From NCBI GenBank assembly GCA_043814055.1, contig JBDRKL010000004.1, positions 1-64,000 on the forward strand: DNA of 64,000 bases. Reading direction: 5' to 3'. Shown piece after piece: positions 41,773 through 41,933 of this stretch; position 1 is the first letter of the stretch; each line of letters starts with the position of its first letter. The notes under the pieces are model-generated. The model saw nothing but the letters and a program-made list of their open reading frames with translations, searched no databases and was not told where the DNA came from. A program made the translations under genes and the position numbers. This DNA is from an archaeon. Lineage in GTDB: Archaea > Undinarchaeota > Undinarchaeia > Undinarchaeales > JBDRKL01.

Positions 41773-41933
41773 ATGTACGACCTACACAGCCTTTTGAGAA
41801 AGGCTGGCGAAAATCGTGCCACATTCGCAAACACACGAAGTGTGTTGCGCAATTCGCTGCCGCGAATTTGCGCCTTCGGCGAAGTGACACTATACGCGGA
41901 GTGCGAAACAAAAAACAATGTACGACCTACACA
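41773..41933 (+). mobile_element. MITE/REP-like palindromic insertion flanked by a 16-bp duplication of the rnp3 start
   Basis: ATGTACGACCTACACA at 41773-41788 and 41918-41933; four hairpins between them. Confidence 0.75.

Follow-up and report, generated by a model that had tools for sequence, protein, structure and literature searches.

As presented in the available parts of the papers cited here, several known systems alter gene ends or disperse small structured repeats. Fungal mitochondrial mORFs (in atp6 of Allomyces, and in atp6, atp9, cox2 and nad3 of Glomus) replace gene ends (PMC3630166). Thaumarchaeal iMGEs use att sites in the 3'-distal parts of protein genes (PMC6563490), and SXT integrates in the 5' end of prfC (PMC10866021). 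Prokaryotic MITEs and REP-like repeats are covered in PMC3184786, while the palindromic GC clusters of yeast mitochondria merge, shuffle and cross species by recombination at conserved flanks (PMC4478555). The consulted part of an archaeal IS survey (PMC13343696) does not treat elements of the kind described below.

The window, a 64,000-nt stretch of contig JBDRKL010000004.1, comes from an Undinarchaeota assembly (G000; 980 kb, 82% complete) that is the sole genome of its family in our comparison set. The analysis confirmed a 129-nt insert as a real insertion footprint within the first codons of rnp3. The features of the site are as follows.

41742..41748, + strand: TATA-like heptamer at -31 from the first ATG, in leaderless-promoter geometry and in line with the genome-wide TATA peak
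41773..41788, + strand: first copy of the rnp3 start (sequence repeat), a dead stub (MYDLH) joined to the upstream DNA
41773..42009, + strand: out-of-frame ORF of 78 codons that opens at the stub ATG, crosses the insert and runs 92 nt into rnp3, with no Pfam match
41789..41917, + strand: modular hairpin cassette of 129 nt, non-coding and lacking terminal inverted repeats (folding, module comparison)
41918..41933, + strand: second, working copy of the rnp3 start (sequence repeat, alignment with relatives)
41918..42580, + strand: intact rnp3 (RNase P subunit p30), 220 aa (PF01876, E 5e-28; full-length alignment with 11 relatives)

The repeated sequence, ATGTACGACCTACACA, is found at 41773-41788 and 41918-41933, and these are its only two occurrences in the 980-kb genome. 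Both copies of the 16-bp duplication reported in the earlier note are thus present at the given spacing of 145 nt, far above the chance expectation for a 16-nt repeat (~7e-8 per given start, ~8e-5 over 1093 crude gene starts). The Rnp3 protein read from the second copy aligns from Met1 with 11 same-order proteins.

The insert had been described as almost entirely palindromic. All four pairs of hairpin arms were found (41787/41799, 41831, 41847/41862 and 41871, the fourth overlapping the third by 3 nt), but the final 14 nt form an A-rich, mostly unpaired spacer. The repeat and insert together fold with z = -3.8 (0 of 200 shuffles equally stable) and the insert alone with z = -2.6 (3 of 200). 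Its two ends match as inverted repeats at 6 of 10 positions, the Rfam search gave no match at the site, and in the predicted folds the two junctions are not paired with each other as they would be in a bulge-helix-bulge intron. The modules follow in the order of an outer D-like hairpin, a reverse A hairpin with module C in its loop, and the spacer.

41787..41806, + strand: outer hairpin adjoining the stub, a variant of the CAACCTTTT...AAAAGGTTG module (8 regex matches genome-wide, its own included)
41820..41886, + strand: arms of the reverse-oriented A hairpin (CACATTCGC ... CTTCGGCGAAGTG) with module C in the loop (7 genome regex matches; alignment)
41829..41873, + strand: module C, a 45-nt double hairpin nested within other modules (11 copies in G000)
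41898..41917, + strand: GGAGTG followed by an A-rich, mostly unpaired spacer; GGAGTG lies at -20, a weak and misplaced SD (-7.0 kcal/mol with the 16S tail)

A similar AACCTTTT arm is present at the rpl37e and tRNA-His stubs. By BLAST, the module C region is 90% identical over 71 nt to C8:32461-32531 and 90% identical over 48 nt to positions 24812-24859 of the window, and the exact module C pattern had no match in the genome and viral contig collections. A covariance model of the paired modules A+B does not score the rnp3 copy (E 4), and it is module C, together with arms of the D-like and A-like kinds, that places the insert in the family described below. The central 4 nt of module C co-vary with bases of the left flank at 41829-41873 and at 10 other G000 sites (GCGC/CGC, GAGC/CTC, GTAC/TAC, GCAC/TGC); since the two change together, the module appears to pair with the flank of its insertion in most copies, with C8:32481 as one exception. 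A module C fragment at 37067-37090 lies in frame in a 358-aa ORF and is flanked by an in-frame 29-nt imperfect repeat whose copies are 84 nt apart.

Comparison with the orthologs, a check proposed in the earlier note, found no start duplication at any of 19 relatives' loci, some of which look redundant. The duplication is absent from 11 same-order genomes (repeats of at least 7 nt within 400 nt) and, within 1500 nt, from the 8 start-containing loci among 12 metagenome rnp3 loci at 45-55% protein identity. Because relatives have no such duplication, an insertion footprint is supported. The identical 16-mer occurs singly in 4 of the 19 loci, probably representing one lineage, where Rnp3 is ~45% identical; since the 16-mer has stayed unchanged in a diverged rnp3, exact copies alone are no proof of a target-site duplication. 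The ancestral rnp3 looks operon-internal: of the 11 same-order genomes, 9 have an ORF just ahead of the gene (rpl15e or a small membrane protein) whose stop is 1-27 nt from the rnp3 ATG. Four of the 19 loci (L003, L006, L048 and L049) carry unrelated short-tandem-repeat hairpin inserts upstream of rnp3 without duplication, and similar inserts are also found downstream of rnp3 in L046 and L048. In G000 the gene upstream is different.

41113..41739, + strand: 208-aa orphan ORF inserted upstream of rnp3, not seen beside rnp3 in relatives

Compared with 411 candidates of 114-364 aa, this ORF matched only itself; its best Atlas score of 0.83 is no more than a lead, and there is no stub around it. 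Downstream, a DGR-like unit (42635-43608) separates rnp3 from pop5, its neighbor in relatives. It contains a 227-aa target gene, an RT-16 RNA (43319-43495, Rfam E 2e-11) and a template repeat, and 18 of 19 mismatches in its repeat pair fall on template adenines. The G000 assembly gave no RVT_1 match; the DGR-type repeat pair nevertheless implies that an RT has acted. A contig from RNA run X1 equals the RT-16 stretch 43290-43474 with no differences over 185 nt, and the flanking genes are uncovered.

That an assembly artefact produced the rnp3 structure is very improbable. Run X1 gives the site no direct cover, as it contains 6% of the words and, over 40000-46000, covers only 43290-43474 and 35 nt near 43537, outside the insert. 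Against an artefact, the insert is unique (the C8 match above being its best paralogue), the same layout recurs in other genomes, and a 16-nt repeat is shorter than the k-mers usually used in assembly.

The earlier note read the insertion as converting a leaderless gene into a leadered one. The TTTTTAT heptamer begins, as it had been placed, at 41742, and its -31 position from the first copy fits the genome TATA peak at -30 (60 of 901 genes). The GGAG said to precede the second copy does exist (41898-41901), but it ends 16 nt ahead of the second ATG and does not adjoin it; its position at -20 lies outside the genome SD peak at -15..-8, and it is mostly paired (unpaired probability 0.19). Given also that the relatives' rnp3 is operon-internal, the case for such a conversion is weak. 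On sequence grounds, transcripts from the -31 TATA likely begin at the stub and would read the 78-codon out-of-frame ORF, the stub ATG would act as a decoy start, and translation of Rnp3 would begin from the second, A-rich ATG, helped at most by a weak SD. The 14-nt spacer before that ATG is 78% unpaired.

These signals could be read as a selected regulatory leader, in which the stub ORF and hairpins tune Rnp3 translation as a decoy start or attenuator; the TATA position directing a leaderless transcript to the stub, and an ORF that stays open for 78 codons, agree with it. We consider this quite improbable, as the arrangement is missing from the 19 relatives' loci and the modules recur beside unrelated genes, at tRNA ends and inside tRNA introns, with no Rfam match. 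Two further variants were rejected. A frameshift rescue from the stub ORF is unlikely, because an A6C run suits a -1 shift by the usual slippage rule and rnp3 needs +1, and a MIRU-like relay mini-ORF would require a stop overlapping the second ATG, which is lacking.

The rnp3 insert is one of a family. Iterated searches identified ~90 hairpin loci in G000, with paralogues of the rnp3 region as similar as the C8 copy, concentrated at tRNA ends, tRNA introns and CDS boundaries, and many of them lie between two copies of a CDS start, a CDS end or a tRNA end. Flanking repeats with a score of at least 13 were found at 30 of the 90 loci versus 0.9% of 450 random windows, a ratio inflated by the many seeds that were selected for repeats; 49 of the 90 have no flanking repeat at score 9. 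In an unseeded test, four of 1093 crude genes (rnp3, gapdh, rpl37e and nreA) have a left-maximal exact repeat of at least 14 nt that starts at the ATG, whereas among the other 34 offsets two have one repeat each and 32 have none. Counting G000 repeats within 60-300 nt gave 5 starts and 12 ends, versus 1 and 2 in windows shifted by 1.5 kb. Repeat length across the family ranges from 8 to 87 nt, the copies are often non-identical, and none of 28 inserts has terminal inverted repeats (at least 8 of 10 positions). Two sibling sites lie in the window.

24799..24898, - strand: sibling cassette built of A+B with a nested module C, lying in frame within the N-terminus of a NiFe hydrogenase large subunit
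51168..51394, - strand: sibling event in which the last 18 aCPSF1/FttA codons are duplicated, with synonymous differences, around a 109-nt insert

At another site protein cargo, a nucleotidyltransferase-HEPN pair, lies between two copies of the DUF357 start that match over 52 nt. Other arrangements were also observed: the 3' end of a GCD14-type tRNA methyltransferase is present three times at C13:25888-26064 of G000 and twice in G001 (L120), with different inserts; five copies of the tRNA-Trp 5' end stand ahead of cargo genes upstream of the tRNA (G000 C6:42600-51030); and a 90-nt unit of cassette plus tRNA-Met end is repeated ~2.5 times at a contig end (G000 C13:47429-47655), possibly as an effect of assembly. 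Members of a second repeat family (TTTCAAA...TTTGAAATG hairpin) overlie start codons at 44990-45037, 48438-48485 and 29870-29915, and a 38-nt hairpin repeat pair, 89% alike, is located just 5' of small genes (28990-29027 and 50191-50228).

The A+B covariance model, built from G000 and G006 copies, has 33, 15, 12, 5, 1 and 1 matches in six of 17 phylum genomes. Its covariation comprises 25 double-change cells, a level reached in 0 of 500 shuffles, with the structure drawn from the same sequences. L058 carries the same cassette family as G000. An A+B pattern search of the genome collection returned two matches, one in Undinarchaeota and one judged to be chance (72% GC coding DNA); 12 viral matches, none with hairpin A, were judged by eye to be chance as well. 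No convincing CDS case was found in G004 (772 genes), G006 (874) or part of G010 (308), and part of G001 (299 genes) holds two gene-end cases. The gapdh and rpl37e orthologue starts and most of the gene ends are single-copy in G006 or G001. A degenerate T-loop and tRNA 3' stub follow a cassette in G010 and G002.

Unlike the exact copies at rnp3, many copies at sibling events differ. Of 49 candidate events found by nucleotide score, 17 were retained on manual inspection; set aside were tandem paralogues, weak matches at a distance, ORFs consisting of cassette DNA, and the AMMECR1 start. In the kept set, third codon positions hold 59 of the 90 differences between copies (p 4e-10), and 8 of the 12 end events differ in stop codon. 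At trmI and dph5 there are serial triplications whose copies are distinct alleles. The copies of a putative bud32-like kinase differ by a stub ATG versus a working GTG, a different N-terminus and synonymous changes, a difference in start codon and N-terminus that staggered cutting cannot produce. Judged by their sequences, the copies at sibling events are demonstrably different alleles.

The events are also polar. In 24 of 28 events the 15 nt that adjoin the dead stub show more pairing than the 15 nt next to the working end (p 9e-5, post hoc); these are 28 of 32 event rows, a mis-registered tRNA-Val row having been dropped, and pairing was compared because the regex orientation of most loci is ambiguous. 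Read along the sense strand, the 5' and 3' events are mirror images, with the outer hairpin at the dead stub and the unstructured spacer at the working end, although selection for translation, and not mechanism, could explain why the spacer is unpaired at 5' events. An SD-like 4-mer lies at -8..-13 inside the insert for four of the five working start copies, rnp3 being the exception. In all five kept start events (DUF357 included) the repeat matches 0 nt upstream of the ATG; repeats extending upstream of the start are seen at AMMECR1 (~24 nt, outside the 17 kept), at gapdh with mismatches, and at three tRNA 5' events.

The earlier note interpreted the footprint as a target-site duplication, and this part of it fared less well than the insertion itself, as a plain duplication of this kind fits a family with different alleles poorly. 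A true target-site duplication would involve staggered nicks 16 nt apart, made by a casposase/Cas1-like, target-primed reverse transcription or other nick-based route, with the recoded siblings arising by later allele exchange. It would account for the exact copies at rnp3 (16 nt) and at rpl37e, nreA and several tRNA ends (14-25 nt), for an insert that terminates in an A-rich run, and for the longest exact run lying, as a duplicated core would, at the transcription-upstream edge in 8 of 14 events with differences. The five repeat edges set at the ATG and the bud32-like start codons speak against it, as do the missing inverted repeats, and we consider it unlikely. Long and variable repeats had further been taken to favour target-primed or nick-based insertion over DDE transposition: the 8-87-nt range and the 0 of 28 inverted repeats do argue against DDE or MITE transposition.

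A local accident is another candidate, in which a cassette was already in place and the start was copied to its other side, without element-borne homology, by template switching induced by the hairpins or by repair of a break. The cassettes are indeed strongly structured, nested in one another and often without repeats, yet such accidents would give neither the synonymous bias nor the different stops nor the distinct-allele triplications, so that we regard this origin as improbable.

Every search of G000 for a mobiliser came back empty. There were no matches to RVT_1, Y1_Tnp, GIY-YIG, 23S_rRNA_IVP or tyrosine integrase, nor to Cas1, LAGLIDADG_3, HNH or DUF559. This bears on target-site duplication, for which neither a Cas1 nor an RT is at hand in G000; the only one of 17 phylum genomes with an RT has no A+B cassette. 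RAYT (Y1_Tnp) is absent from all 17 (72-98% complete). Tyrosine integrase is present in seven of the 17, one of which (G009) has a single weak cassette match, and was not found in G000 or three cassette-rich f3 genomes; tyrosine recombinases of any kind, XerA among them, were not found in G000 or nine other phylum genomes. The integrase, RT and GIY-YIG loci of relatives gave no convincing cassette match (one 21-nt match, E 0.007). Among 132 proteins common to G000 and the cassette-rich G006 and missing from the cassette-free G004, no transposase or integrase was seen by eye; NucS/EndoMS (G000 C9:68264-69037), present in G000 and G006 and not in G004 (86% complete), was the only standout.

As the best explanation we propose, at about an even chance of being correct, that the insert is a non-autonomous cassette which brought along a donor's version of the gene end and was integrated by short-homology crossover. 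The cassette would consist of hairpin modules, an unstructured spacer and the donor lineage's copy of the rnp3 start, and the crossover would fall within the 16 nt common to donor and recipient from the ATG on. Either a mini-circle would have integrated through a single crossover, or a donor allele with the duplication already in place would have converted the site over short arms. The native start would then be left upstream as a dead stub beside the outer hairpin, while the carried start would head the intact gene. Repeats edged at the ATG, allele differences, polarity and tRNA stubs are what a single crossover with a unit of donor end plus cassette would leave. We infer that rnp3 followed the same route as its recoded siblings, that the route was a crossover, and that a mobiliser worked in trans, such as a nuclease encoded by a virus or by DNA missing from the assembly. 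Several considerations count against the carried-end explanation: the rnp3 copies are identical, so no foreign allele is visible there; 16 nt is short for RadA-type homologous recombination; G000 yielded no mobiliser; some repeats extend upstream of the start; and about half of the cassette loci have no flanking repeat.

A broader proposal, which we find possible but doubtful, is that these are retargetable, protein-free micro-elements: polar hairpin cassettes that capture 13-100 nt of an adjacent gene or tRNA end and have no dedicated integrase. They would move in the form of mini-circles, single-stranded or RNA-derived, attach in related lineages at the end they had captured, and swap the starts and ends of essential genes between species, sometimes with protein cargo.

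If the carried-end explanation holds, archaea with reduced genomes gain DNA at the first or last codons of essential genes without breaking them, gene termini are small mosaics of foreign alleles, and gene-end insertions are linked to tRNA-intron hairpins built of the same modules. It makes testable rules, with the outer hairpin against the dead stub and the repeat edge at the ATG or stop. Annotation should beware of decoy starts ahead of rnp3, gapdh and rpl37e. The rnp3 site is clean and, because its copies are exact, less informative; its value lies in being the 5' mirror image of the recoded 3' events.

The comparison with known systems, limited to what the consulted parts of the cited sources describe, gives a partial likeness in each case. 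As in mORFs, whose insert brings a foreign, protein-conserved gene end and turns the native end into a stub (PMC3630166), an apparently foreign end and a displaced stub are seen at sibling sites, the rnp3 copies being exact. However, mORFs encode a LAGLIDADG or GIY-YIG endonuclease and are described at C-terminal ends (PMC3630166), whereas the inserts here are 49-140 nt long, encode nothing, and occupy 5' starts, 3' ends and tRNA ends on an archaeal chromosome; the 129-nt rnp3 insert has no endonuclease ORF, in line with the empty GIY-YIG, LAGLIDADG_3 and HNH searches of G000.

Integrative elements likewise leave direct repeats that are short, 13 bp in one iMGE example, and restore the ORF with element-borne sequence, and at rnp3 direct repeats lie in a gene end with the gene kept intact, as at an att site. 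SXT reportedly supplies a new 5' end to prfC. Such elements are nevertheless kilobases in size and carry a tyrosine recombinase or casposase, unlike the cassettes, which have no recombinase in the insert or assembly and whose modules are common to dozens of unrelated targets. For a casposon, both the casposase (in the G000 assembly) and terminal inverted repeats (in the inserts) are absent, and for target-primed, SINE-like retro-insertion there is no RVT_1 match in G000, though the neighboring DGR-type repeat pair implies past RT activity.

Like MITEs and REP-like repeats, which are under 200 bp, non-coding, structured, dispersed and sometimes fused in frame to genes (PMC3184786), the cassettes are small, non-coding, multi-copy and structured. 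They differ from MITEs by the lack of terminal inverted repeats in all 28 inserts and by 8-87-nt repeats with allele differences in place of a short, fixed, identical duplication, and from REP/REPIN-RAYT systems by the absence of RAYT from the 17 phylum genomes. Yeast GC clusters are also GC-rich hairpin modules that merge and shuffle, but their flanking repeats are 2-3 nt and, in the available part of PMC4478555, no replacement gene end is described. In the literature covered by our search, largely papers open without subscription, no gene-less, end-replacing hairpin cassettes were described in prokaryotes, and the rnp3 insert is a member of an apparently undescribed system of this kind.
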